NCBI GenBank assembly: GCA_963796285.1
Contig: CAWCKW010000003.1
Coordinates: forward strand, 160,001 to 224,000
Origin: Nitrospirota bacterium
GTDB lineage: Bacteria > Nitrospirota > UBA9217
Reading direction: 5' to 3'
DNA: 64,000 nucleotides
Shown here one piece after another: positions 51,667-63,418 of this stretch (positions are counted from its first letter, which is position 1; each line of letters starts with the position of its first letter). Both the position numbers and the translations under genes were made by a program. The notes beneath the pieces are model-generated. The model made no database searches. It saw only the letters and a program-made list of their open reading frames with translations, and was not told where the DNA came from.

Positions 51667-54366
51667 TTAGATGGGTCGACGTGTTCTTCGTCTCTTGATC
51701 ATTTTCTCGATCTCGACAGCGATGAACACGACCGATGACAGGAGCAGAACGAACGCGAGTTCCACGGGCGTAAGCGGCTGGGTCTTGAAGATGGGATTTA
51801 AGAAAGGAACATAGATGGTGGCCAGTTGAAGGACCAGCGTTATCAAGACGCTCAGAAAGAGCGTTTTGTTCGTAAATATCCCCTGCGAAAAAAGTGATTC
51901 TTTCTCGGAGCGGATAGCCATTACGTGGCCCATCTGCGTGAGGCAGAGCACGGTGAAGACCATGGTCTGCCAGTGGGCGTCGCCGGAATGGATTGCCCAT
52001 GCCTGGAGCGACAGTGTGACCCCTCCCATGAGCAGTCCCACCCAGATCGCGTGGATGCCGAGTCCATGGGCAAAGAGGCTTTCCTGCGGCTTGCGCGGCG
52101 GCCGCTTCATCACGTCCCCTTCCTCCGGCTCCACGGACAGGGCCAGCGCCGGAAGGCCGTCGGTCACGAGGTTGATCCAGAGGATATGGATCGGCAGGAG
52201 CGGGATCGGGAGGCCTAGAAAGGGCGCCAGGAAGAGGGTCCAGATCTCGCCTGAGTTCGTGGTGAGCAGGTACTTGATGAACTTGCGGATGTTGTCGTAG
52301 ATGCGCCTCCCCTCTTTCACGGCCATCACGATGGTGGAGAAGTTGTCGTCCAGCAGGATCATGGCCGACGCCTGCTTGGCCACATCCGTACCCGTGATGC
52401 CCATGGCCACACCGATGTCGGCGCGCTTGAGCGCCGGCGCGTCGTTCACCCCGTCGCCGGTCATGGCCACGAAATGCCCCTTGTCCTGGAGCGCCTGGAC
52501 GATCTTCAACTTCTGTTCCGGCGCTACCCGCGCGTACACACGGATGGACTCGACGCGCTGTTCGAACGCCTCAAGCGAGAGGGCCTCGAGCTCAACACCG
52601 GTGATGACCGCCGCAGGGTCATCGTTCTCGAGGATGCCCACCCGTTTCGCGATGGTCCTCGCGGTCAGGGGGTGGTCTCCGGTGATCATGACCGGGATGA
52701 TGCCGGCGCTTTTGCAAAGCGAGACGGACTCCTTTGCCTCTTCCCGCGGAGGGTCCATCATGCCCATGAGGCCGAGGAGGACCAGACCTGTCTCGGCGTT
52801 CTCAGAAGACAGGTCCGACGGGACAGCTTCCCAGCCCCGCATCCCGATGGCCAGGACCCGGAGCCCGTCCGCCGCCATCTGGTCGCTGATCGATTGCATC
52901 TTCCTGGCATCAAGGTCCTGCATCCCTCGTGATGTCAGGACGCCTGCTGATCGTTCGAGCACAACCTCCACCGCACCCTTGGTGAAGGAGATATACGCAC
53001 CGCTTATCACTGATGCCTGGCCCCTGACCCCTGATTCCGGCATCGCATGGAACGTGGTCATGAGTTTTCGCTCGGAATCAAAGGGGAGCTCCGCAGTGCG
53101 GGGATAGACGGCCTCCAGTTCCTGCTTTCTGAATCCATGGTCGCGCGCAGCAATAAAGAGCGCGGCTTCGGTGGGGTCTCCGGTCACTTCTCCCGACGTG
53201 TCCTGGCGTGCATCAGTGGAGAGGGCCAGGGCGGTCATAAAGAACGATTTCGGATTGCGGATTGCTGCTTGCGGATTAACAGCTTCTTTGCCCGTTTCAT
53301 TCCGCAATCCGAAATTCGAATTCCGCACTGCATTCCCATCCACCCACATCTCCTCCACCGTCATTCTGTTCAGGGTGAGCGTTCCGGTCTTGTCCGTGCA
53401 GATGTAGGTGACCGATCCGAGCGTTTCGACAGCCGGAAGTTTGCGCACCAGGGCATTCCGTTTCACCATCTTGCGTGCGCCGAGGGCAAGGGCGATGGTG
53501 ACCACTGCGGGCAGGGCTTCGGGAATGGCGGCAACGGCGAGGCTTACGGCCACGAGGAACATCCTGACGGGCTCCTCTTCCCTCATCAGGCCCGCGGCAA
53601 AAACGATGGCGCAGATGGCGAGCACGGCATAGGCGAGTTTTTTGCCGAACGCAGCGAGCCGCTTCTGGAGCGGCGTCTTTCCCTCTTCCTCGCCCTGAAT
53701 CATGGCCGCGATCCGGCCCAGCTCGGTGTCCATACCCGTTGCCGTCACCATGCCGATGCCCCGGCCGTAGGTCACGATCGTGCCCTTGTAGAGCATGTTC
53801 TTCCGGTCGCCAAGGGCAAGTGGCTCCTGCTTGATCGTCTCGGGGTGCTTTTCCACGGGGAGCGATTCTCCCGTCAACGCGGCCTCTTCGATCCGGAGCC
53901 GGACCGACTCGATGACCCGCATGTCTGCGGGCACGATCCTGCCGGCCTCAAGGACCACGATATCGCCGGGCACCAGCTCAGATGCCGCGATGGTCTGATG
54001 CTCGTTGTCGCGGAGCACGACGGCAAGCGAGGCCGTCATCTTTTTGAGCGCCTCCATTGCCTTTTCCGCGCGGTACTCCTGCGTGAACCCGAGCACGGCG
54101 TTCAGGAGAACGATCACGATGATGGCCGCCGTATCAACCGGCTCGCCGATGACCCCGGAGATCACCGCCGCCGCGATCAGGACCAGGATCATGAAGTCCT
54201 TGAACTGGTCAAGGAACAGCAACAGGGGTGTCTTCTTCTTTTTTTCGACAAGCTCATTGGGGCCGTGCAATTCGAGGCGGACCTGTGCCTCTTCCGAGGT
54301 CAGACCCTGGAGGGAGGATCTCAGTTCAACAATGGTTTCTGCAACACTGCGTTGGTAGGGATACAC
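51667..54366 (-). CDS. P2A-type (Ca2+/Mn2+-like) cation-transporting ATPase
   Basis: LTGES, AIPEALP, DKTGTLT, MITGD, TGDGVNDAP, WINLVTD. Confidence 0.95.
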   Translation of the reverse strand: MYPYQRSVAETIVELRSSLQGLTSEEAQVRLELHGPNELVEKKKKTPLLLFLDQFKDFMILVLIAAAVISGVIGEPVDTAAIIVIVLLNAVLGFTQEYRAEKAMEALKKMTASLAVVLRDNEHQTIAASELVPGDIVVLEAGRIVPADMRVIESVRLRIEEAALTGESLPVEKHPETIKQEPLALGDRKNMLYKGTIVTYGRGIGMVTATGMDTELGRIAAMIQGEEEGKTPLQKRLAAFGKKLAYAVLAICAIVFAAGLMREEEPVRMFLVAVSLAVAAIPEALPAVVTIALALGARKMVKRNALVRKLPAVETLGSVTYICTDKTGTLTLNRMTVEEMWVDGNAVRNSNFGLRNETGKEAVNPQAAIRNPKSFFMTALALSTDARQDTSGEVTGDPTEAALFIAARDHGFRKQELEAVYPRTAELPFDSERKLMTTFHAMPESGVRGQASVISGAYISFTKGAVEVVLERSAGVLTSRGMQDLDARKMQSISDQMAADGLRVLAIGMRGWEAVPSDLSSENAETGLVLLGLMGMMDPPREEAKESVSLCKSAGIIPVMITGDHPLTARTIAKRVGILENDDPAAVITGVELEALSLEAFEQRVESIRVYARVAPEQKLKIVQALQDKGHFVAMTGDGVNDAPALKRADIGVAMGITGTDVAKQASAMILLDDNFSTIVMAVKEGRRIYDNIRKFIKYLLTTNSGEIWTLFLAPFLGLPIPLLPIHILWINLVTDGLPALALSVEPEEGDVMKRPPRKPQESLFAHGLGIHAIWVGLLMGGVTLSLQAWAIHSGDAHWQTMVFTVLCLTQMGHVMAIRSEKESLFSQGIFTNKTLFLSVLITLVLQLATIYVPFLNPIFKTQPLTPVELAFVLLLSSVVFIAVEIEKMIKRRRTRRPI
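53004..53040. repeat. heptamer tract in frame within the ATPase
   Basis: ttatcac tgatgcc tggcccc tgacccc tgattcc; encodes ESGVRGQASVI. Confidence 0.65.
53246..53330. repeat. two-armed heptamer palindrome in frame within the ATPase
   Basis: gatttcg gattgcg gattgct gcttgcg / attccgc aatccga aattcga attccgc; encodes VRNSNFGLRN...NPQAAIRNPKS. Confidence 0.8.
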
Positions 54367-54587: not shown

Positions 54588-54630
54588 AAAGAGGCAGCAG
54601 GATCACTACTTTCCCTGCTGCCTCTTTTTA
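54588..54630. terminator. intrinsic terminator after the Met-rich operon
   Basis: aaagaggcagcagg ... cctgctgcctcttttt. Confidence 0.75.
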
Positions 54631-54643
54631 TCTCTTTCATTTA

Positions 54644-54784
54644 TTATTGGAACGGCACAACCGGCGGCTGATCTTCTCCACATAGATGCATTCCCTGCAT
54701 CAAATGCATTCCGCCGATCAATATCATCACAACCATCACGACTACCACGATACCGATGACGACTTAGGCTCTCTGATTGTCCAT
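54644..54784 (-). pseudogene. small single-TM Met/His peptide gene with an in-frame TAA at codon 7
   Basis: MDNQRA*VVIGIVVVVMVVMILIGGMHLMQGMHLCGEDQPPVVPFQ*; ATG lies 12 nt after the upstream stop, behind gagag. Confidence 0.5.
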
Positions 54785-54796
54785 ATAACTTCTCTC

Positions 54797-56531
54797 TTAA
54801 ATGGTTCCGTTGGAGGAGGTCAACTGGTTCATAAGCGACTGCATGTCTGTCACGGTCAGCCCTGATTTGTTCGCTGTTGACCCCATGAACGTTGTAATCG
54901 CAGTGGCCAGCCCGCTTGTTCCTGCCGTGGACTGCATCATGGTACCGCCGCCCATCATGCCTCCACCCATGCCGCCCATGGTGATAGACGTGCTGCCCAT
55001 CATGCCGTTCATGATACCATCCGATGCGTCATTCATCATGGCCGTTATCAGCGCTGCGGGATCGGTCATGCTGATGGTCTGGGCATACTGAGACATGGCG
55101 GCAATGCAAATGCCGTAGTTCTTCATGGCCGTCGTCGTACCTCCGGATACTAATTCAGCCGCGTTCATCGGCATCGTCTGGAGGATGTCAGTGACCATGA
55201 AGTAATTGCCCACGGACGTGTTTGCCGCAGTGATGTTCGCGCCGGTCATGCCGCCTGCCATGTTGTTGGCCATGGCCTGGGCCATGGATGTAAGGGGCGT
55301 CATCTGAATGCCGGTGACCGTGCTGCCGCTCGAAATGTTCGGAATGACTGCTGTCATCATATCGCCGGACAACATGGGCATGGTCGTACCGGTTGCCAGG
55401 TTCGTATACGAGCCTCCGCTCATCTTGAGCATGACGGGACCGGAATAGGCGCCGAGGGACAGGCTGAAGCTGCCCATGCTGTTCGTGGTCCCGCTGGCCA
55501 GCTGCGCGCCCATGGCGCCGCCAGTCATTGAATATGCCATGACCGTGGCGTCGCTCATCGATCCGTTGAAGACCGATCCGCTGACCATCCCGTTCATCAT
55601 CGTTCCTCCTCCGCTCTGAATAGTGCCGGTCGCCGAGGAAGTCAAGTGGTTCATGAGTGTCTGCATGTCCGTCGCGGTTACGCCTGACTTATTCATGCGT
55701 GGATGCAATGAACGTCGCCATTGCCGAGGCGAGCCCGCTTGTTCCCGCCGTTGTGGTCATCATTGAGCTGCCGGACATCATACCGCCCATCATGATCGGC
55801 GTACTTCCCATCAAGCCGTTCATGACCCCGTCCGACGCGTCGCTCATCATGGACGTGACCATGCTTGACGAGGAGGTCATTCCCATGTCCTTTGCGGACT
55901 GCGACATGGCAGCGATGGCCATCCCGTAGTTTTTCATGTCCTGGGTCGCCGTGCCGCTCGAACCTGACACCAGCGGGTTCATCGGCTGCGTATGCAGGAT
56001 ATCAGTGACCATGAAGTAATTGCCCATGGACGTGTTTGCCGCAGTGATGTTCGAGCCGGTCATGCCGCCTGCCATGTTGTTAGCCATGGTCTGGGCCATG
56101 GAAGTAAGCGGGGTCATTTGAATTCCGGTCACTGACGCATCGCTCGATACCGACGGGATGACAGCGGTCATCACGTCACCGGGAGACATGGTCATGGTGG
56201 CTCCCATTGCTTCATCGATATAGGTTCCGCCGCTCATCTGGAGCATGACAGGACCGGTGTAAGCGCCCATCGTCATGCTGAAATTGCCCTGCGAGTCCGT
56301 TGTTCCATTGGCCACCGGAGTTCCCATGACTCCATTTGTGATGCCGTATGCTGTTACCGTCGCGCCGCTTACCGGCCCCTTGACCACCATGCCGCTGATA
56401 GTTCCGTTACTTGTACCAGAAGTTGTCCCGTTGTCGCTGCCGCCTCCCCCTCCGCAACCATAGAGAAGCGACATGGAGCCGATCAAGAGCGTGAGAGCCA
56501 AAATTACATGTAGATTTCTGTTTCTTTTCAC
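54797..56531 (-). CDS. methionine-rich two-repeat lipoprotein (~577 aa), +1 frameshift near 55698
   Basis: GTG start, SD aggagg, lipobox LYGC; two ~271-aa paralogous halves; removing one C restores ASTMNKSG, matching STANKSG of repeat 2; about 80 Met. Confidence 0.85.
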
Positions 56532-56589
56532 TTTGTAAGCCTCCTATTGAGATTGTATTGAGTACTTTTTTTCACAATTAACAACCATT

Positions 56590-56616
56590 AGACGAGCGGA
56601 AAACAAAAAGGTTACA
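56590..56616 (-). promoter_or_regulatory. ECF-type promoter for the Met-rich lipoprotein
   Basis: TGTAAC-ctttttgttttccgct-CGTCT (N16) on the minus strand. Confidence 0.75.
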
Positions 56617-56674
56617 AAGAAAAAAATTGGCTCTTTAGTAGCCGGCCGATATATAAGGGCTATCCCTATGATGA

Positions 56675-56683
56675 TGGTATAAT
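56675..56683 (+). promoter_or_regulatory. extended -10 sigma70 promoter for the CBM48-like lipoprotein
   Basis: TGGTATAAT (TGn-TATAAT) about 55 nt upstream of ATG 56736. Confidence 0.55.
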
Positions 56684-56735
56684 AACACAAAGCAAGGAAC
56701 GCAATGCAATGACGTGTCTCGATAACAAGGAACAA

Positions 56736-57083
56736 ATGTGCAACCGCTCTTTTATAAATATTATCGTCATCCTCCTGCTCACCGGTTGCGCACCCAAGTC
56801 GCCTGCACCTGAGGTGTTGAGCAACGGGGTCCGCTTTTCGTTTTTCGCTCCCTCTGCAAAGAGCGTCGCCATCGCCGGCAGCTTTAACCAGTGGGATCCA
56901 GAGCAGACCCACCTCACCGGTCCTGACAAGAAAGGACTCTGGACCATTATTCTCCCGCTCTCCACGGGACGCCATGAGTACCACTTTGTCATTAACAACA
57001 GTGAATGGGTCCTCGACCCGGCTGCTCCGTCAGTGGATGACGGGCTCGAAGGGAAGAACTCCTTTGTCATGGTTCCGCCATAA
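56736..57083 (+). CDS. lipoprotein with CBM48/AMPK-beta-like (early-set) domain
   Basis: Lipobox LTGC; FAPSAKSVAIAGSFNQW, GLWTIILPLSTGRHEYHFVIN..EWVLDP...DDGLEGKNS. Confidence 0.85.
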   Translation: MCNRSFINIIVILLLTGCAPKSPAPEVLSNGVRFSFFAPSAKSVAIAGSFNQWDPEQTHLTGPDKKGLWTIILPLSTGRHEYHFVINNSEWVLDPAAPSVDDGLEGKNSFVMVPP

Positions 57084-57174
57084 GAATCCGCAGAGCAGAG
57101 CGCCCCGGAACAGAGGGAAGTATCCGAAAAAAAGTACCTATGCTACAGTGAATTGGCGAAGTCCGATAAAAAGA

Positions 57175-57201
57175 TGTAACTTTTTTTCTTTTTACTCGTC
57201 T
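57175..57201 (+). promoter_or_regulatory. ECF-type autoregulatory promoter
   Basis: TGTAAC-tttttttctttttact-CGTCT (N16), 13 nt before the sigma ATG. Confidence 0.75.
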
Positions 57202-57214
57202 TACGAGTATCAAT

Positions 57215-57778
57215 ATGAACATTGATCAGCAGTCCGGGGAAGCGGACATCATCAGGCAATGTCTCGATGGCGAGTCGGATTCCTATTCCGTCCTGGTGGA
57301 CCGCTATAAAAAGATGGTTTACAATGTGGCCTACCGGATGCTGGGAGACGGTGATCTTGCGAACGATATTGCCCAGGAAAGCTTTATCGCCGCCTATGGG
57401 GGCCTGAAGAAGTTCAAACAGGACGCGAAATTTTCATCATGGCTCTACAGCATTGCCTTGAACAAGTGCCGGGACCATCTGCGGGTGACAAAAGAAAACA
57501 TCCCGATCGACGATATTTCAGATATCAAACCCGGCAGCGGTCTTTCTCCGGAACAGGCCGCGTCGGACCACCAGAGCAACGACCTGCTGCAACAGGCCTT
57601 GAATGCGCTCCCTGCGGAATACCGCGAGGTGCTCGTTCTGAAACACATTGAGGAGCTGGATTACCAGGAGATCTCGGCGATCACGGGGGCCAGCGTGTCG
57701 GCGCTCAAGGTCAGGGCGCATCGGGGGCGTGAGATGCTGAGAAAGATACTGGAAAGATCAGGAGTGACCCATGGATAG
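57215..57778 (+). CDS. ECF RNA polymerase sigma factor
   Basis: Region 2 (ANDIAQESF, FSSWLYSIALN) and region 4 (LPAEYREVLVL, YQEIS, LKVRAHRGR). Confidence 0.95.
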   Translation: MNIDQQSGEADIIRQCLDGESDSYSVLVDRYKKMVYNVAYRMLGDGDLANDIAQESFIAAYGGLKKFKQDAKFSSWLYSIALNKCRDHLRVTKENIPIDDISDIKPGSGLSPEQAASDHQSNDLLQQALNALPAEYREVLVLKHIEELDYQEISAITGASVSALKVRAHRGREMLRKILERSGVTHG

Positions 57779-58424
57779 AGAACGGGAGATCATACATAAG
57801 ATCCTTGATGGCGATGCGGAGGAGGAAGAACAAAAGGTCCTTTCGCGGGGCATGGAGACCGATACCAGGCTGAAGGAGGACTTCACCGGCCTCATGAGCG
57901 CGGTCCGATTGCTCAAGGAGAGCGAACGGCGCGAGGCGCCGTTTTCCTTTACCGCCGAGGTAATGAAGAAATTGCCGCGGAGATCGCCGTCCGTGCTCAG
58001 CCGTTTCAGGGAATTCCTGTTTGGCAGCCGGGTGCTGCGCTGGAACATGGCGTCGGCGCTGGCAACGGCGCTGGTCGTACTGGTCATGGTCGTGACTGTT
58101 ACCCGGACGCATCGCGAGCAAACCGGGACGATCGTCAGCAGTTCGTCGGGCCAGGAGGAGACCGCGGTCTCGGTCCGGCTGACCTTTCACGCTCCCCAGG
58201 CGCAGCGTGTGGCGGTAGCCGGCGATTTCAATAAGTGGAAGACCGATGTTCATGAGATGAAAAAGAGCGATGGCGTCTGGAGCATCGATCTGAAACTAAA
58301 GCCCGGAATCTATTCCTACAGCTTCGTCGTTGACGGTAAATCATGGGTCCCCGATCCCGGAGCGGAATCGTATGCAGATGACGGTTACGGGTCCCGGAAC
58401 TCCATCTTGAGAATAAACATATGA
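57771..58424 (+). CDS. anti-sigma factor: cytoplasmic domain, TM and periplasmic CBM48-like domain
   Basis: Overlaps the sigma stop; APFSFTAEVMKKL, TM ASALATALVVLVMVVTV, APQAQRVAVAGDFNKW...GIYSYSFVVDGKSWVPDP...DDGYGSRNS. Confidence 0.85.
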   Translation: MDREREIIHKILDGDAEEEEQKVLSRGMETDTRLKEDFTGLMSAVRLLKESERREAPFSFTAEVMKKLPRRSPSVLSRFREFLFGSRVLRWNMASALATALVVLVMVVTVTRTHREQTGTIVSSSSGQEETAVSVRLTFHAPQAQRVAVAGDFNKWKTDVHEMKKSDGVWSIDLKLKPGIYSYSFVVDGKSWVPDPGAESYADDGYGSRNSILRINI

Positions 58425-59305
58425 AAAGGACAAATAACATGCTTAGGTTTGCCGGCACGGTACTGCTCCTGATACTTCTGCTCCCGTTGTCAAGGACGTT
58501 TGCTGCGGAGAACCGGCATCTTGACAACATTCGCAATGTCCTGGAAGCATCGACACTCTCGCGACCAGAGCAGGCTGAAGTGAATGCCAGGGCGGCCGCC
58601 GCAATGAACGCCGGGGTGCCGGGTGAGGACGTGGAGATCATTGTTTCGCGGTCAGTGGGCCGAGGAGCAGACGCCGGAGCGATCAACCGGTTCCTCGACA
58701 CCGGTCTGTCGGCAAAAAAAGAGGGCCTGTCTGCTCGTCCCGTACTGGACAGGATAGAGCAGGGACTTTCGAAGGGTGTTCCGACCGAGCGGATCGTCGC
58801 GGCTTCCCGACGGCTTGCGGAGAAAATTGCAACAGCGCAGCCTCTTGTCGATGCGCTCATTCGCGACGGCATGACACCCCGTCGGAACAATGAACGCGAA
58901 GCAGCGATCGAATCAGCTGCCCGCGCGCTCGAGAAATCCATGGATGCCCACGATATCAGGGCCATGGGCGCGGCGGTCCGTAGCCAGCGGGGATCGCTGC
59001 TGCTCTTTAGCAGTGCCATGGACACGGCAGCCTATTTTGCCGCAAGCGGCATGTCTCCGAAGACTGCCTCGCGCCTTGTCCGGGATGCCGTGCAAAAGGG
59101 TTCTACCGAACACGGCCTGGGCGTCATGGTACGTAGGATGGATGATGAGATGAAACACGGGACCAGCGCAGAGGACGTTGCAAGGAAAATGGAACGCGGA
59201 AATATGCAAGAAGAGCGGGGCATGGAACGTCAGGAAATGCGCCAGGAGATGAATACCGACCACGGAAAGGGATCAGGTTCCGGTATGGGTGGGCACGGGA
59301 TGTGA
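58421..59305 (+). CDS. exported helical hypothetical protein with Met-rich tail
   Basis: ATGA overlap, signal peptide ending TFA, GLSKGVP motif, tail MERQEMRQEM...GMGGHGM. Confidence 0.78.
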   Translation: MKRTNNMLRFAGTVLLLILLLPLSRTFAAENRHLDNIRNVLEASTLSRPEQAEVNARAAAAMNAGVPGEDVEIIVSRSVGRGADAGAINRFLDTGLSAKKEGLSARPVLDRIEQGLSKGVPTERIVAASRRLAEKIATAQPLVDALIRDGMTPRRNNEREAAIESAARALEKSMDAHDIRAMGAAVRSQRGSLLLFSSAMDTAAYFAASGMSPKTASRLVRDAVQKGSTEHGLGVMVRRMDDEMKHGTSAEDVARKMERGNMQEERGMERQEMRQEMNTDHGKGSGSGMGGHGM

Positions 59306-59401
59306 TGCGCGGGAACATTCCTGGAACCAGGCTGTAATGGTATGGTTGAAAACCCATACGCAAGACGCGCGGGCAAACTACAACGATAGGAGGTACATAT
59401 T

Positions 59402-59962
59402 ATGAAACGGTCCTTATATATTCTCATCAGTGTGTTCGTGCTGTTGCTCACCATGCTGGGTGCAGTATGGGCGGCAGAGTCAAAGGAAGAGAAGACTCTC
59501 CAGAAGGAAGCCACTGCGATCAACGCCACGGCAGGCAATGCGCAGGGAGAGAAGGTCGTAACCCAGAGGCTGGAAAAGGAGTTCAAGGTAACAGAGATGC
59601 AGATCCAGCGCCTGCGGGACAAGAAACTCGGCTACGGAGAAATCGCTATTGCCCTGTCCCTTTGCCAGAAGATGCCCGGCGGTGCAACGGACGCTAATAT
59701 TCAGCAGGTCATGACCATGCGCCAGGGACCGCCGACCATGGGCTGGGGCGAAATCGCCAACAAGCTCGGGACCAAGCTGGGTCCTGCGGTCTCCCAGGTC
59801 AGGAACGTCAACAAGGAAACCAACAGAGAGATGAAGCACGAGGCCAAAGGCGATAAGGAGCACATGGAGAAACATCAGGAGCAGCATGAAGATATGCACA
59901 GGGACTCCATGGATCATGAGAGCATGGGTGGCCAGGGTGCGTCTCATGGCAAAGACAAATAA
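59402..59962 (+). CDS. exported hypothetical protein with His/Met-rich tail
   Basis: SD aggagg, signal peptide ending VWA, LGYGEIAIAL and MGWGEIA motifs, tail MKHE..EHMEKHQEQHEDMHRDSMDHESM. Confidence 0.82.
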   Translation: MKRSLYILISVFVLLLTMLGAVWAAESKEEKTLQKEATAINATAGNAQGEKVVTQRLEKEFKVTEMQIQRLRDKKLGYGEIAIALSLCQKMPGGATDANIQQVMTMRQGPPTMGWGEIANKLGTKLGPAVSQVRNVNKETNREMKHEAKGDKEHMEKHQEQHEDMHRDSMDHESMGGQGASHGKDK

Positions 59963-60100
59963 GTTAAAATCGGGGGCTGTTCCATTTAAAACGAAGGCCT
60001 GTCTTCATTCTGTTCGGACAATGCTTTGTTCAGGAAAGAGGAAGAGTGTCCTTCGTTTGTATCTATGCGGTGACATCAATGTGAAGAAGGAGCTGCCATT

Positions 60101-61024
60101 GTGAAGAGAGAACAGGACCGCCTGGAATCGCGTAAGAGATATTTTTTACCTGAACTATTGCTCATTGGATTGATCCTCAGCTTTTTTGTGTTTCCGGGAA
60201 GCGTCTTTGCCGGCCTGCTTCTCGACGCGGAGCTGCGGCTCCAGTATGAGGACAACGTGGTCGGCCTTCTCTCGGACCAGCAGAAGGGCAGTGTCAGTAC
60301 CGGGGCAGGAATGTCCGGTGGCACAGCCATGCAGGCCAGCAGTATGGGGGGCATGGGAGGCGGAAAGAACAATTACACGGGATCAAGTTCGGGCTCCTCC
60401 CAGTCGCCGGGCGATTTTTCCGCGACCCTTTATGCCGAGGCGGGAGGATACCAGGATGTGGGCAGGGATGCTGAGGTGTTCGCGAAAGGCTTTGCCTCAC
60501 ATACTTCCTACGACACCTACACGGACCTGAATTCGAACATCGGAGGTGTCAATACAGGCATTTCTGTCATTCTGAGTGACCTCCTCTCCACCCGCGTTTC
60601 GGTCCTCGGAAAGATCAAGCGTTTTGACGACAGCCAGCGCAACAGCACCGCCTACGCAGGGAACCTCAGCTTGAAGGAAAAGCTGACACCCTCGTTCTGG
60701 CTTCGGGAGTACGGCCAGTATGAAAAGAACAGCGCGGATACTTCTGTTTTCAGTTATACCGGCACAATGATCGGCATGGAGGCGGGTTATGCCGTCATGA
60801 AGAAGACCCGCGCAACACTCGGCTACAGCTATCTCGTCCAGAAGTATGACGAACCTTCGGGCGCCGAGATGAAAACACAGACCGCTTACGTGAGCGCTGA
60901 ATATACCGTGAGGAAGAACTGGGCTGTTTCCGGGGAGTACGATTTACAGCTGAGCAAGGAGAACGTGACGGGGACGAGCGCGACGGACAATATCTTCTCG
61001 CTGGCGCTGCGGTACAATTATTAG
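60101..61024 (+). CDS. putative outer-membrane beta-barrel with Met/Gly-rich loop
   Basis: SD aaggag, signal ending VFA, amphipathic strands, C-terminal SLALRYNY, loop GMSGGTAMQASSMGGMGGG. Confidence 0.78.
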   Translation: MKREQDRLESRKRYFLPELLLIGLILSFFVFPGSVFAGLLLDAELRLQYEDNVVGLLSDQQKGSVSTGAGMSGGTAMQASSMGGMGGGKNNYTGSSSGSSQSPGDFSATLYAEAGGYQDVGRDAEVFAKGFASHTSYDTYTDLNSNIGGVNTGISVILSDLLSTRVSVLGKIKRFDDSQRNSTAYAGNLSLKEKLTPSFWLREYGQYEKNSADTSVFSYTGTMIGMEAGYAVMKKTRATLGYSYLVQKYDEPSGAEMKTQTAYVSAEYTVRKNWAVSGEYDLQLSKENVTGTSATDNIFSLALRYNY

Positions 61025-61149
61025 AATAGTAAAGGGGGCACAACGCACTGTAAGAAGGGTTACGCGCTGAAGAATCGCGGATCCTGATCAATGCAGGATT
61101 TTCGATCAGATGCAGAGTATTTGACGCTATTTGCACATCGACGTGAAAA

Positions 61150-61184
61150 CCAGGGGCGTCGCGACTGTAACGCCACGCCCCTGG
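61150..61184. terminator. GC-rich hairpin between convergent genes
   Basis: ccaggggcgt ... acgcccctgg. Confidence 0.5.
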
Positions 61185-61217
61185 TGAGCGATTTGTTGTC
61201 TGCTATTGCTTTTAATT

Positions 61218-61871
61218 TTATTTCTTGAATTTATCCGGGAACTGTTTCACGATACCGTCCGTCAACGTATCCGCAAACATCAGCATGTGTTCGTGACCTT
61301 TGTCATAATAAGTTATATCGGCCGCCCAATCTTTGTTCAGTCTTGACACAACTTCGCCTGTTGTAAGCGCCAGATGCTTATAGAGCATATTGACAAGGTC
61401 TTGCTTGGGCCAATTCGGATTTGCGCCGCTCAGGAATGTTGCGATATCATCGGCATTCGCTTCCCATTTCTTATTGGCTTTTGCAAGCTCTTCCTTGTTG
61501 CCCATCTTAGCTGCTTTGACGACCTCTGTTGCAACCATAATATGATCTCTCAGTAAAGAAGCTAATTTTTTCCCCGCCGCGTCTCCGTAGACCGGCTTTA
61601 TCGCATCACCAATATCGTCTTGATTTCTGAGAAGTCTCTCGGCGATTTTACCCGTGTCTTCAAGACCGGCCAGTGCGCTTATAATGTAGTTCCGCGTATA
61701 TATTATATGGTCTTCCCATAGCTTCCTCATAGCGATTCTTAAATCAACGACTGATTTGTTGCACACCATTTCACCGGTCATGCTGCCCTTCATGGATTCC
61801 GCAGCTGAAACACTCACCATCGCCGTTATAAAACATACAACCAAAATACAACTTACAATAACTTTTTTCAT
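61218..61871 (-). CDS. exported all-alpha protein with spaced His residues, function unknown
   Basis: SD ggagg, signal ending VSA, LWEDH, LLRDH, MLYKH, GHEHMLM. Confidence 0.8.
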   Translation of the reverse strand: MKKVIVSCILVVCFITAMVSVSAAESMKGSMTGEMVCNKSVVDLRIAMRKLWEDHIIYTRNYIISALAGLEDTGKIAERLLRNQDDIGDAIKPVYGDAAGKKLASLLRDHIMVATEVVKAAKMGNKEELAKANKKWEANADDIATFLSGANPNWPKQDLVNMLYKHLALTTGEVVSRLNKDWAADITYYDKGHEHMLMFADTLTDGIVKQFPDKFKK

Positions 61872-61959
61872 TGTAGCCTCCCGATTAGATTTAGTTTGTG
61901 AACAAATGAAGCAGGTATCCTTTACCTCTGAACCAAAACGCCTCCTTTCATGTAGAAAA

Positions 61960-61986
61960 AGACGAGACTTGTTATTAATTGTAGCA
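61960..61986 (-). promoter_or_regulatory. degenerate third ECF-type promoter
   Basis: TGCTAC-N16-CGTCT, with the same CT before CGTC as the other two sites. Confidence 0.45.
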
Positions 61987-62530: not shown

Positions 62531-63418
62531 TCAAGGCAGGGCCGATGTATGCCGGTAATACCAGCTCACGACCTGTTCAATGTTGCCGATGATGCTCTCT
62601 TTTGCATTCACCAGGAAGATCCGGTCCTGGATGTGAAACAGCTCGCGCTCCAGGCGCGCGATCAACGGAGGATAGGCAAACCGTCGCGCGAGCTCTGCCT
62701 CGAACATGGGCACGAGCTTGTCCTTCATGCGCAGCTCCGTGTCCATGAGGAAAACAGCGATGGCGGGCGCCAGGTCCGCGACGCGGTCGAAGAACGCCGT
62801 GATCTCGCTGTCGTAGATCTGTTTGGGCGGCGAGGATTTGACTTCCACATAAGCAAGCGCGCCATCGATCTTTGCGATCACATCGTAATCGCCGCCGACC
62901 CGCGGCCGCTTGAACTTCACTCCCCAGACCGCAGCGGAGCCGAACTCTCGCTTGAACACTTCGGCGACATACCACTCGAGCGTTTCTCCAAAGCTTCTGA
63001 TCGGCCCTTTGGCAAGGACGTAACCGTTCTCCGTTTTCTTCACTAACTTGAGGGATACGAGATAATCGAGATATCCTTTCGTGATCGACGGTGTGGCATA
63101 CCGCGTCACCTGCTCGAGCGTGAACAGCTTCTGGTGCTTGATCACGTCGCGCAGAAAGAGACGGAACGAATACTTATGGAGCATCTCGTAGAATTTTTGC
63201 TGAGATTTTTTTTGCGGGATAAACAGGTCATCGGCAGGTTCCCTTTTATAGATGATAAAGCCCCGGTGCCGAAGGAGCATGTCAAGGCCAAGCGTCTGCC
63301 GGTTGAGAGCCTTGCGCAGCCGCTTCACCTCTTCCCGCAGGAAGGCAAGCTCAGTAATGGTTTTGGCTTTTTCTGTGGGCACGGCCGTTCTCGCTGTCAA
63401 GTGAATAACGGTGCGCAT
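62531..63418 (-). CDS. hypothetical protein, wHTH-like plus PD-(D/E)XK nuclease-like domain
   Basis: FGETLEWYVA, GGDYDVIA, YVEVKS pattern; start codon uncertain. Confidence 0.7.
   Translation of the reverse strand: MRTVIHLTARTAVPTEKAKTITELAFLREEVKRLRKALNRQTLGLDMLLRHRGFIIYKREPADDLFIPQKKSQQKFYEMLHKYSFRLFLRDVIKHQKLFTLEQVTRYATPSITKGYLDYLVSLKLVKKTENGYVLAKGPIRSFGETLEWYVAEVFKREFGSAAVWGVKFKRPRVGGDYDVIAKIDGALAYVEVKSSPPKQIYDSEITAFFDRVADLAPAIAVFLMDTELRMKDKLVPMFEAELARRFAYPPLIARLERELFHIQDRIFLVNAKESIIGNIEQVVSWYYRHTSALP

Follow-up and report, generated by a model that had tools for sequence, protein, structure and literature searches.

The window analysed here comprises 64,000 nucleotides from a Nitrospirota bacterium (GTDB lineage UBA9217; assembly GCA_963796285.1, contig CAWCKW010000003.1, positions 160,001 to 224,000), and its right-hand part carries a gene cluster built around an extracytoplasmic function (ECF) sigma factor and several methionine-rich exported proteins. 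On the forward strand, the gene for the sigma factor (57215..57778, 187 residues) is followed by genes for a single-pass anti-sigma factor (57771..58424) and for an exported helical-repeat protein of 294 residues with a Gly/Met-rich C-terminal tail (58421..59305). In the list of open reading frames (ORFs) the first two genes overlap by 8 nucleotides and the second and third by 4, which bears out the translational coupling proposed in a first-pass annotation made from this DNA alone. The same strand then encodes an exported protein of 186 residues with a His/Met/Glu-rich tail (59402..59962), which varies in its position in the cluster, and a putative outer-membrane beta-barrel of 307 residues with a Gly/Met loop after its first strand and a C-terminal aromatic signature (60101..61024). 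The 294- and 186-residue proteins both belong to undescribed families. Upstream of the sigma gene lies the gene for a CBM48-fold lipoprotein of 124 residues (56709..57083, forward strand) and, divergent to the sigma operon on the reverse strand, the gene for a Met-rich two-domain lipoprotein (54797..56531; hereafter the Met-lipoprotein) together with a micro-ORF (54644..54784).

The sigma factor contains the Pfam domains Sigma70_r2 (PF04542, 1.2e-19) and r4_2 (PF08281, 4.6e-16) and no other domain, and it scored 112.5 bits on TIGR02937 (cut-off 42.9). With regions 2 and 4 only in 187 residues, the protein classifies by its domains as an ECF (group 4) sigma factor. Its best specific NCBIfam model is SigW, where it stays under the equivalog cut-off (145.7 versus 209 bits), and the nearest solved structure is that of Bacillus subtilis SigW (2.8e-31), with CnrH matching at 1.2e-13. 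The anti-sigma factor contains no Cys, and thus lacks the HxxxCxxC motif of the zinc-binding anti-sigma (ZAS) domain; its non-zinc N-terminal domain, which is conserved in 36 aligned sequences, gave a weak match to the 'anti-sigma factor' model NF052375 (residues 17-137, E 6.7e-6, 26.3 bits versus a cut-off of 100). A single hydrophobic stretch at residues ~92-115 forms the predicted transmembrane helix, and the C-terminus beyond it matches AMPK1_CBM (6e-12; 46.1 bits, cut-off 26.8) and CBM_48 (7.5e-11; 42.7 bits, cut-off 22.4). The same two families are found in the 124-residue lipoprotein (AMPK1_CBM 7.7e-11, CBM_48 1.1e-12; 42.5 and 48.6 bits, above the gathering thresholds). These Pfam matches confirm the CBM48-type domains that the first-pass annotation had proposed for both proteins, and we recovered 244 homologues with the full anti-sigma architecture.

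Conservation of the cluster was assessed by means of the 294-residue protein. The window's order (one family) contributed 64 genomes, and 36 of them encode this protein, as do 18 of the 32 good-quality genomes. Around 20 of the 35 matches outside the window's own genome we fetched ~20 kb, giving preference to longer contigs. The sigma and anti-sigma genes are present in 19 of these 20 related loci, the CBM48 lipoprotein in 19, the barrel in 18, the 186-residue protein in 12 and the Met-lipoprotein in 6. The Met-lipoprotein gene is mostly upstream and in the same orientation, and is inverted only in the window and its closest relative. Across the phylum, 114 of 401 genomes contain anti-sigma matches at E<=1e-12 (including matches to the CBM48 part only), and full-length matches occur in several further Nitrospirota families. 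Twelve loci from other families were inspected, and the CBM48 lipoprotein is adjacent in all of them. Seven, from five families, have the order lipoprotein, sigma, anti-sigma, helical protein with the same promoter motif as described below, and five of the seven also have the barrel; the remaining five, from complete genomes of 3-4 Mb in two families, have the order sigma, anti-sigma, lipoprotein, with a relative of the helical-repeat protein next in at least two. Co-occurrence of the cluster genes across genomes, a check proposed at first pass, is therefore seen in 19 of the 20 loci within the order and, at least for the genes of sigma, anti-sigma and CBM48 lipoprotein, in the 12 from other families. 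The trio of sigma, anti-sigma and CBM48 lipoprotein is also present in Nitrospira-like complete genomes, which may allow it to be tested in culture.

The sigma gene and the Met-lipoprotein gene share an upstream motif, GTAAC(C/T)TTTT-N11/12-CGTC; this promoter type can also be written GTAACCTTTT-N-CGTC. Pattern searches located two predicted ECF-type promoters: one for the sigma operon, which would be autoregulatory (TGTAACT-N15-CGTCT, 57175..57201, forward strand), and one for the Met-lipoprotein gene (TGTAACC-N15-CGTCT, 56590..56616, reverse strand). The exact pattern TGTAAC-N16-CGTCT occurs three times in the 3.58 Mb genome versus zero times for its reversed control, and two of the three occurrences are these back-to-back sites, in agreement with the matching promoters named by the first-pass annotation. 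We take the third (G000:C12:498359-498385) as a chance match, because it lacks the extended -35 element and no ORF longer than 40 residues lies downstream. A looser search (GTAAC-N16/17-CGTC) returned 23 genome matches, and the extended -35 GTAACnTT was found only in the two of the cluster. Every related locus with a sigma gene (19 of 19) has the motif 5' of it. In the window, the CGTC of the sigma promoter ends 14 nucleotides before the ATG, and in 13 of 16 loci the distance to the start is 13-15 nucleotides; since, in addition, no Shine-Dalgarno sequence lies between the two in the window (57197-57217) or in relatives, the sigma mRNA is probably leaderless or nearly so. The sigma gene thus has both a cognate anti-sigma gene, predicted to be co-transcribed, and a predicted autoregulated ECF-type promoter. 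On the evidence of these sequences we assign a probability of about 0.9 to the regulatory part of our reading, namely that the cluster is an autoregulated ECF sigma/anti-sigma envelope module conserved across Nitrospirota.

Among the known systems closest to this regulatory arrangement are SigW-RsiW of B. subtilis and, more generally, ECF sigma factors with a class I single-pass anti-sigma. SigW-RsiW likewise combines a two-domain sigma factor (r2, r4) with a co-transcribed single-pass anti-sigma, and its promoter, also autoregulated, has AAC at -35 and CGT at -10. In contrast to that system, the sigma factor of the cluster scores below the SigW equivalog cut-off, its anti-sigma has no Cys and is not a ZAS protein, the periplasmic domain has a CBM48 fold, and the regulon consists of Met-rich exported proteins.

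The sensor domains raise the question of a carbohydrate signal. Among 36 anti-sigma sequences, the periplasmic positions F153, N154, W156, W170, W192, D195, P196, D203, D204 and G205 are invariant. The CBM48 lipoprotein shows the same motif in 17 orthologues, its lipobox Cys is invariant (17 of 17), and it is a paralogue of the anti-sigma sensor domain. The invariant aromatic and Asn positions (W156, W192 and N210 in the anti-sigma; W62, W100 and N117 in the lipoprotein) presumably correspond to sugar-contacting positions of the AMP-activated protein kinase (AMPK) beta module, which makes a glycan ligand possible, and the same Trp and Asn residues are also plain family consensus. One could thus suppose that the CBM48 domains bind an alpha-glucan or envelope polysaccharide and that the regulon remodels the envelope, the Met content being incidental. 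Anti-sigma factors with carbohydrate-binding modules do exist: RsgI of Clostridium thermocellum is a membrane anti-sigma with a C-terminal carbohydrate-binding module that partners a SigI-type sigma factor in a Gram-positive bacterium and controls cellulosome genes. The anti-sigma described here resembles RsgI in the fold of its extracytoplasmic part, and differs in that it is paired with an ECF sigma factor in a diderm, has no carbohydrate-active genes nearby and is accompanied by a second, lipoprotein copy of the module. The CBM48 domains in the cluster are either stand-alone or fused to the anti-sigma, with no GH13 or kinase-scaffold attachment. The 100 ORFs that flank 11 loci in different genera include no GH13/alpha-amylase gene, which we count against a glucan-catabolic role and which agrees with the earlier expectation that alpha-glucan genes are not consistent companions; they do include a single gene resembling alpha-glucan water dikinase and a single GT2 gene. 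The window cluster itself contains no sugar transporter or glycoside hydrolase, and what the regulon encodes is a set of exported proteins rich in Met, Gly and His rather than carbohydrate-active enzymes. Overall, we regard a glycan-responsive module as very improbable. The dikinase-like gene (L163:1202-4303, reverse strand) lies ~2 kb from its cluster and is the sole glucan-related neighbour among those 100 ORFs.

We then turn to the proteins that the sigma factor would control. The Met-lipoprotein gene reads in the window as two ORFs, 55689-56531 (280 residues) and 54797-55708 (303 residues), which contain 12.9% and 13.9% Met and are 63% identical; the first carries the lipobox LLYGC. Deleting one base at 55698/55699 joins the two frames. 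Relatives have a single ORF of 579-597 residues (L054, L055, L056 and L049); in L057 the longest ORF has 649 residues, as its start lies further upstream. Contigs of related populations from public sequencing runs that cover the junction lack the extra base in 5 of 5 cases (three from X1, one from X3 and one from the RNA library X15; a fourth run, X2, has no cover at this site). Since fragmentation of the Met-lipoprotein gene, and of others, is also seen in the closest relative's genome, a true frameshift is no more likely than an assembly error. The ~14% Met lipoprotein of the first-pass annotation thus stands in its composition and lipobox, and is revised to one two-domain gene split by one base. 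Contigs from X15 cover parts of the Met-lipoprotein and CBM48 lipoprotein genes, and such contigs cannot show transcription, starts or levels. The copA-type ATPase gene of the same genome (G000:C12:1348280-1350712) is likewise in broken pieces, with two TGA codons inside the middle piece, and like the split Met-lipoprotein gene it may reflect assembly indel errors.

The Met-lipoprotein consists of two tandem domains, each made of a beta-sandwich and a Met-rich segment. AlphaFold (AF2) modelled residues 43-141 as a confident beta-sandwich, for which Foldseek returned only generic transthyretin-like or Ig-like sandwiches, and neither Met-rich ORF matches any Pfam family. Scoring of candidates placed 1193 proteins in the family at E<=0.001, every one of them unnamed or 'hypothetical'; a typical member is a lipoprotein of ~305 residues, and source labels assign members to Anaeromyxobacter, Syntrophales, Desulfurivibrionaceae, Acidobacteriota and Thermoleophilia. 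Alignment of 50 sequences showed 2 invariant Met positions and 15 conserved in at least 90%, which indicates that particular Met positions are kept, beyond mere composition. One homologue (P0089, source label Syntrophales) carries a C-terminal c-type cytochrome domain (PF00034), which hints at a redox partner. A further exported protein, of 144 residues with 35 Met (24.3%; L051:11069-11503), recurs near Met-lipoprotein genes without a family assignment and was also matched in L075, L076, L079, L087, L091 and L097.

The micro-ORF beside the Met-lipoprotein gene has an in-frame TAA at codon 7 and appears to be the remnant of a gene for a small membrane protein. Its longer relative, an 80-residue protein with a transmembrane helix and a His-rich tail (L056:6441-6683), shows weak similarity (BLASTP E 3e-4), and tblastn matches to the small membrane protein were found 3' of the Met-lipoprotein gene in L079 and L091; no Pfam or NCBIfam match was obtained. 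What had been annotated as a Met/His micro-ORF is therefore better described as a truncated relative of a longer protein, which does have a His-rich tail.

Among the other products of the sigma operon, the 294-residue protein has a family of 171 representative clusters in 1.84 billion proteins, and Atlas gave for it only unnamed 'hypothetical protein' clusters with no Pfam family. AF2 predicted an all-helical repeat of 13 helices with a disordered tail (predicted local distance difference test, pLDDT, 91.6; predicted template modelling score 0.81). Foldseek and VIA-align searches gave designed repeat proteins, weak mTERF/TALE-like rows and no natural relative of weight, the best Z of 10.1 being under the meaningful level for helical repeats, and a profile search of Protein Data Bank (PDB) sequences gave designed proteins only. 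The last 40 residues in 58 family members have a median of 30% Gly, compared with 8.7% in the body, and the family usually terminates in a basic Gly-Met-Gly-Gly-type end. For the 186-residue protein, no Pfam match and no PDB sequence match at E<=1 was found, and Atlas returned only 'hypothetical protein' clusters, again with no Pfam family; the final 50 residues of its close orthologues contain 4-8 each of Met and His. A signal peptide and an aromatic C-terminal end, together with OmpG-type/EpsL matches that all stayed below threshold, make the 307-residue protein a putative outer-membrane beta-barrel; a CopB match was not obtained at E<=0.1. Taken together, the sequences indicate that Met/His enrichment is strongly conserved in the Met-lipoprotein and partially in the other regulon proteins. 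The His/Met tails and the Met/Gly barrel loop reported at first pass are present here and partly conserved, and are lost in distant relatives.

The CBM48 lipoprotein gene lies between the two ECF promoters and 5' of the sigma promoter, outside both ECF-promoter transcripts, and has its own TGnTATAAT-like extended -10 element at ~56675-56683. It is probably expressed independently of the sigma factor, which would fit a sensor part rather than an output. Such an arrangement could also suit a generic surveillance of envelope integrity or lipoprotein trafficking, comparable to NlpE or RcsF, with a structural or chaperone-like regulon and no role for metals or oxidants: the sensor domain and the lipoprotein are paralogous, the lipoprotein is kept apart from the regulated transcripts, the fold of the helical-repeat protein suggests no ligand, and the neighbourhoods are otherwise variable. 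This explanation leaves the conserved Met positions unaccounted for, as well as the adjacency of genes for copper ATPases, YHS, YtkA and PCYCGC proteins described below. We also found no positive evidence for contact between the lipoprotein and the anti-sigma. A complex prediction with anti-sigma residues 125-217 and the mature lipoprotein (residues 28-124), made without controls, scored 0.00 against a mark of 0.32 and is evidence neither for nor against. We therefore judge pure envelope surveillance to be rather unlikely.

The promoter motif also defines the regulon in related genomes. It precedes the Met-lipoprotein gene in 6 of 6 loci within the order and in 6 of 7 Nitrospirota-labelled genome loci, and in none of 4 loci labelled Anaeromyxobacter or 'delta proteobacterium'. 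The motif is retained where the gene is no longer linked to the cluster: in L055 (contig G003:C14, 369,414 bases) the Met-lipoprotein gene lies ~155 kb from the cluster with the motif upstream, and the same is seen for genes away from the ECF cluster in L056 and L057. Among 80 Met-lipoprotein loci from metagenomes, the strict motif precedes the gene in 19, and the ECF cluster lies alongside in 14. In relatives the motif also lies before other genes for exported proteins, among them a family of 168-177 residues with a Gly/Met/His tail and small charged proteins of 107-127 residues ending in Gly/Met-rich tails. An exported family of 143-177 residues, some members with Gly/Met/His tails, has its own ECF motif (L055:9911-10444, L051:6104-6610 and L064:1607-2038) and was matched in L077, L078, L080, L085, L093 and L106; its promoters mark it as a predicted regulon member in relatives, and it is not present in this window. 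The motif appears sharp enough for regulon prediction in metagenome-assembled genomes.

The gene neighbourhood of the Met-lipoprotein family points to copper. Away from the ECF cluster, P1B ATPases adjoin Met-lipoprotein homologues in 3 of 11 genome loci: those of L057 and L061 have HMBD domains, with YHS, YtkA and PCYCGC genes also present in L061, and the neighbour in L060 (Anaeromyxobacter terrae) is a His-rich P1B ATPase. All three scored 578-611 bits on the copper-ATPase model TIGR01511 (cut-off 397). In the metagenomes, a copper-type P1B ATPase occurs in 11 of the 80 loci, some of them near-duplicates that leave ~7 distinct arrangements, versus ~0.3 expected from two such genes per 3.6 Mb over the 379 kb that flank the 80 loci; YtkA is found in 3 loci and YHS in 2. 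In locus L079 the whole ECF cluster shares a single row with the Met-lipoprotein, the ATPase, the small membrane protein and an exported protein of 24% Met. Next to complete clusters of other families lie MerR and ArsR genes and an HMA-type P1B ATPase gene (L158), PCYCGC and YtkA genes (L159) and a YHS gene (L160). The Met-lipoprotein family is thus recurrently adjacent to copper-type P1B ATPases and accessory genes. The absence of a P1B ATPase stated by the first-pass annotation holds for the window and does not hold for Met-lipoprotein neighbourhoods elsewhere, and its metal reading gains contextual support from the copper-type ATPase, YHS, YtkA and PCYCGC genes.

Several observations weigh against a copper function. 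Most metagenome loci (69 of 80) have no P1B ATPase, though flanking sequence of 3 kb or more is available for only 38 of the 80 and the other 42 fall short of this. The window cluster contains no copper gene, and the copA of its genome is on a different contig and lacks the motif. In its Met-rich half the lipoprotein model falls below a pLDDT of 50, so that no binding site can be shown there. The Met/His enrichment of the other products is uneven: only 17 of 58 tails of the 294-residue family reach 15% Met+His, distant orthologues of the 186-residue protein lack its His/Met tail, and among barrel orthologues the Gly/Met loop occurs in 14 of 15 from the window's own family (all but L041) and in none of 5 from other families. 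On the sensory side, the periplasmic anti-sigma domain has no conserved His, Met or Cys in 36 sequences and the CBM48 lipoprotein has no conserved metal ligands in 17 orthologues, which makes direct metal sensing by these domains unlikely. Finally, two findings recall a methionine-based defence against oxidants. In Anaeromyxobacter oryzae (L058:5280-10427), an ECF sigma gene and an NrsF-type anti-sigma gene, the regulator type of the MrpX system, lie directly 5' of an 864-residue ORF with three Met-lipoprotein domains, and the window's genome encodes MsrA and MsrB with signal-peptide-like N-termini.

The oxidant defence in question is the hypochlorite response of Azospira suillum, in which the SigF/NrsF pair is reported to induce the Met-rich periplasmic peptide MrpX together with a periplasmic methionine sulfoxide reductase (Msr), YedY1 (Melnyk 2015, PMC4436054). 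By analogy, the sigma factor of the cluster would answer reactive chlorine or oxygen species, and the Met-rich proteins would be sacrificially oxidised and re-reduced by a periplasmic Msr. Several points speak for this reading: a small regulon with a Met-rich periplasmic protein at its core is under ECF sigma control in both systems, the NrsF-type pair adjoins a Met-lipoprotein homologue in A. oryzae, a Met content of 13% is conserved, and the exported-type MsrA and MsrB make an oxidant-sink cycle possible in the window's genome. Unlike the small peptide MrpX, the Met-rich protein of the cluster is a two-domain beta-sandwich lipoprotein of ~580 residues, and the window anti-sigma has no match to PF06532 (NrsF). 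MsrA, MsrB and NrsF were found in none of the 80 metagenome Met-lipoprotein loci, MsrP/YedY not being among the queries, and the msr genes of the window's genome lie elsewhere without an ECF motif. Furthermore, a pure sink needs neither specific Met positions in a conserved frame nor the His and Gly that accompany Met in the tails, and it leaves the copper ATPase adjacency unexplained. Most carriers bear labels of anaerobic-type lineages (such as Thermodesulfovibrionales, Syntrophales and Anaeromyxobacter); Nitrospira-like genomes also carry the sensor trio. We consider an oxidant sink rather unlikely, and marginally less credible than envelope surveillance. The adjacency of copper ATPases together with the lack of msr genes alongside favours Cu(I) buffering over an oxidant sink; of the co-occurrence with cop and msr genes that the first-pass annotation proposed to check, the copper half is seen in the recurring P1B ATPases and the MsrA/MsrB half is not seen at the 80 loci.

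Based on this context and on the conserved Met positions, we assign a probability of about 0.5 to the second part of our reading, that the induced proteins buffer copper. In the mechanism we propose, the anti-sigma would hold the sigma factor at the membrane until an envelope signal acts on its CBM48 domain and frees the sigma factor, probably via proteolysis of the anti-sigma, as for other single-pass anti-sigma factors. The paralogous CBM48 lipoprotein, transcribed separately, would probably act as a co-sensor. The freed sigma factor would then raise two units, its own operon from sigma through barrel and the Met-lipoprotein, whose products would bind and buffer Cu(I), possibly also Ag(I), through the conserved Met residues and the flexible Gly/Met/His tails, from the inner-membrane face across the periplasm to the outer membrane. 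Met-rich proteins might stand in for the oxygen-dependent CueO in these lineages, most of which are anaerobic. What the CBM48 domains detect would probably be not the metal but a consequence of the stress, for example a glycan or a partner protein. It is tempting to go further and speculate that the sensors detect copper-inflicted envelope damage (failed lipoprotein maturation or an altered glycan) and call up a multi-protein Cu(I) sponge, built from the two-domain Met-lipoprotein, helical-repeat proteins with Gly/Met/His tails and the Met-loop barrel, that replaces CueO and Cus throughout the phylum, an extension that we hold to be unlikely.

Periplasmic copper binding by Met and His residues is well known from the pco, sil, cop and cue systems, where PcoE/SilE, CusF, the Met-rich segment of CueO and the PcoB/CopB barrel bind the metal. 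The cluster resembles these systems in its exported Met/His-rich low-complexity segments, in a barrel with a Met-rich flexible segment and in its association with copper P1B ATPases. It differs in that, by sequence, neither the Met-rich ORFs nor the barrel belongs to their families, and in that it stands under an ECF sigma factor and not a two-component or MerR-type regulator. ECF control of an envelope metal response is found in CnrYXH of Cupriavidus metallidurans, in which CnrX is a helical His/Met metal sensor and the output is a resistance-nodulation-division (RND) efflux pump. Both systems combine an ECF sigma factor, a membrane anti-sigma and a separate periplasmic sensor protein. In contrast to CnrX, the accessory protein of the cluster is a CBM48-fold lipoprotein without conserved metal ligands, and the output consists of Met-rich exported proteins. 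The regulatory principle and the kind of output are therefore known; the undescribed families and the unusual, duplicated sensor fold are the new part. Our literature searches found no description of a CBM48 anti-sigma, of the Met-lipoprotein family or of the cluster. The ECF classification literature covered, including the main text of Casas-Pastor 2021, has no mention of glycogen, CBM or AMPK; the supplements, which possibly list anti-sigma domain types, lie outside that scope.

If the copper reading is true, the cluster would show how periplasmic Cu(I) can be handled without an oxygen-dependent oxidase in anaerobic, largely uncultured Nitrospirota, and likewise in Anaeromyxobacter, Syntrophales and other carriers of the Met-lipoprotein. 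It would also give a function to at least three undescribed families (the Met-lipoprotein, the helical-repeat protein and the CBM48 anti-sigma) and add a new type of ECF sensor, in which a carbohydrate-binding-module fold is used twice, on the anti-sigma and on a lipoprotein. As Anaeromyxobacter oryzae is cultured, the Met-lipoprotein family could be tested there.

To the right of the barrel, an exported helical protein of 217 residues (61218-61871, reverse strand) is encoded in a low-GC stretch (0.42-0.44). The first-pass annotation had included this convergent protein in the system as 'His-studded' and placed a third, degenerate promoter before it. We rejected both proposals: the protein contains 5 His (2.3%) and is missing from all 20 related loci, including one that is 90% identical, and the putative promoter before 61871 mismatches 2 of 11 fixed positions, a degree of similarity reached by 452 sites genome-wide. 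A PDB sequence search gave no match at E<=1; the family has at least 7528 matches, often at least 70% identical, some with the source label 'glycosyltransferase' and without a Pfam domain. Beyond it, a 295-residue protein without a family match (62531-63418, reverse strand) is a conserved 3' neighbour of the barrel in at least 8 of the 20 related loci.

Simple scans of the DNA for sigma-70 promoters and for terminators performed no better than on shuffled sequence (7 versus 6.4 and 9 versus 7.8, respectively). Read directly from the sequence, a GC-rich hairpin with a stem of 9-10 bp and T-rich runs on both strands lies 3' of the Met-rich operon (54593..54622) and is likely a terminator usable on both strands. 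Next to it, the reverse strand encodes a PMR1/SERCA-like P2-type ATPase (51667-54366), which scored 716 bits on TIGR01522, just below the cut-off. Such a PMR1/SERCA-like ATPase adjoins the cluster in 9 of the 20 related loci, with TerC-family genes beyond it in L036 and L053, and this adjacency may be mere synteny or a link to the handling of Ca or Mn.

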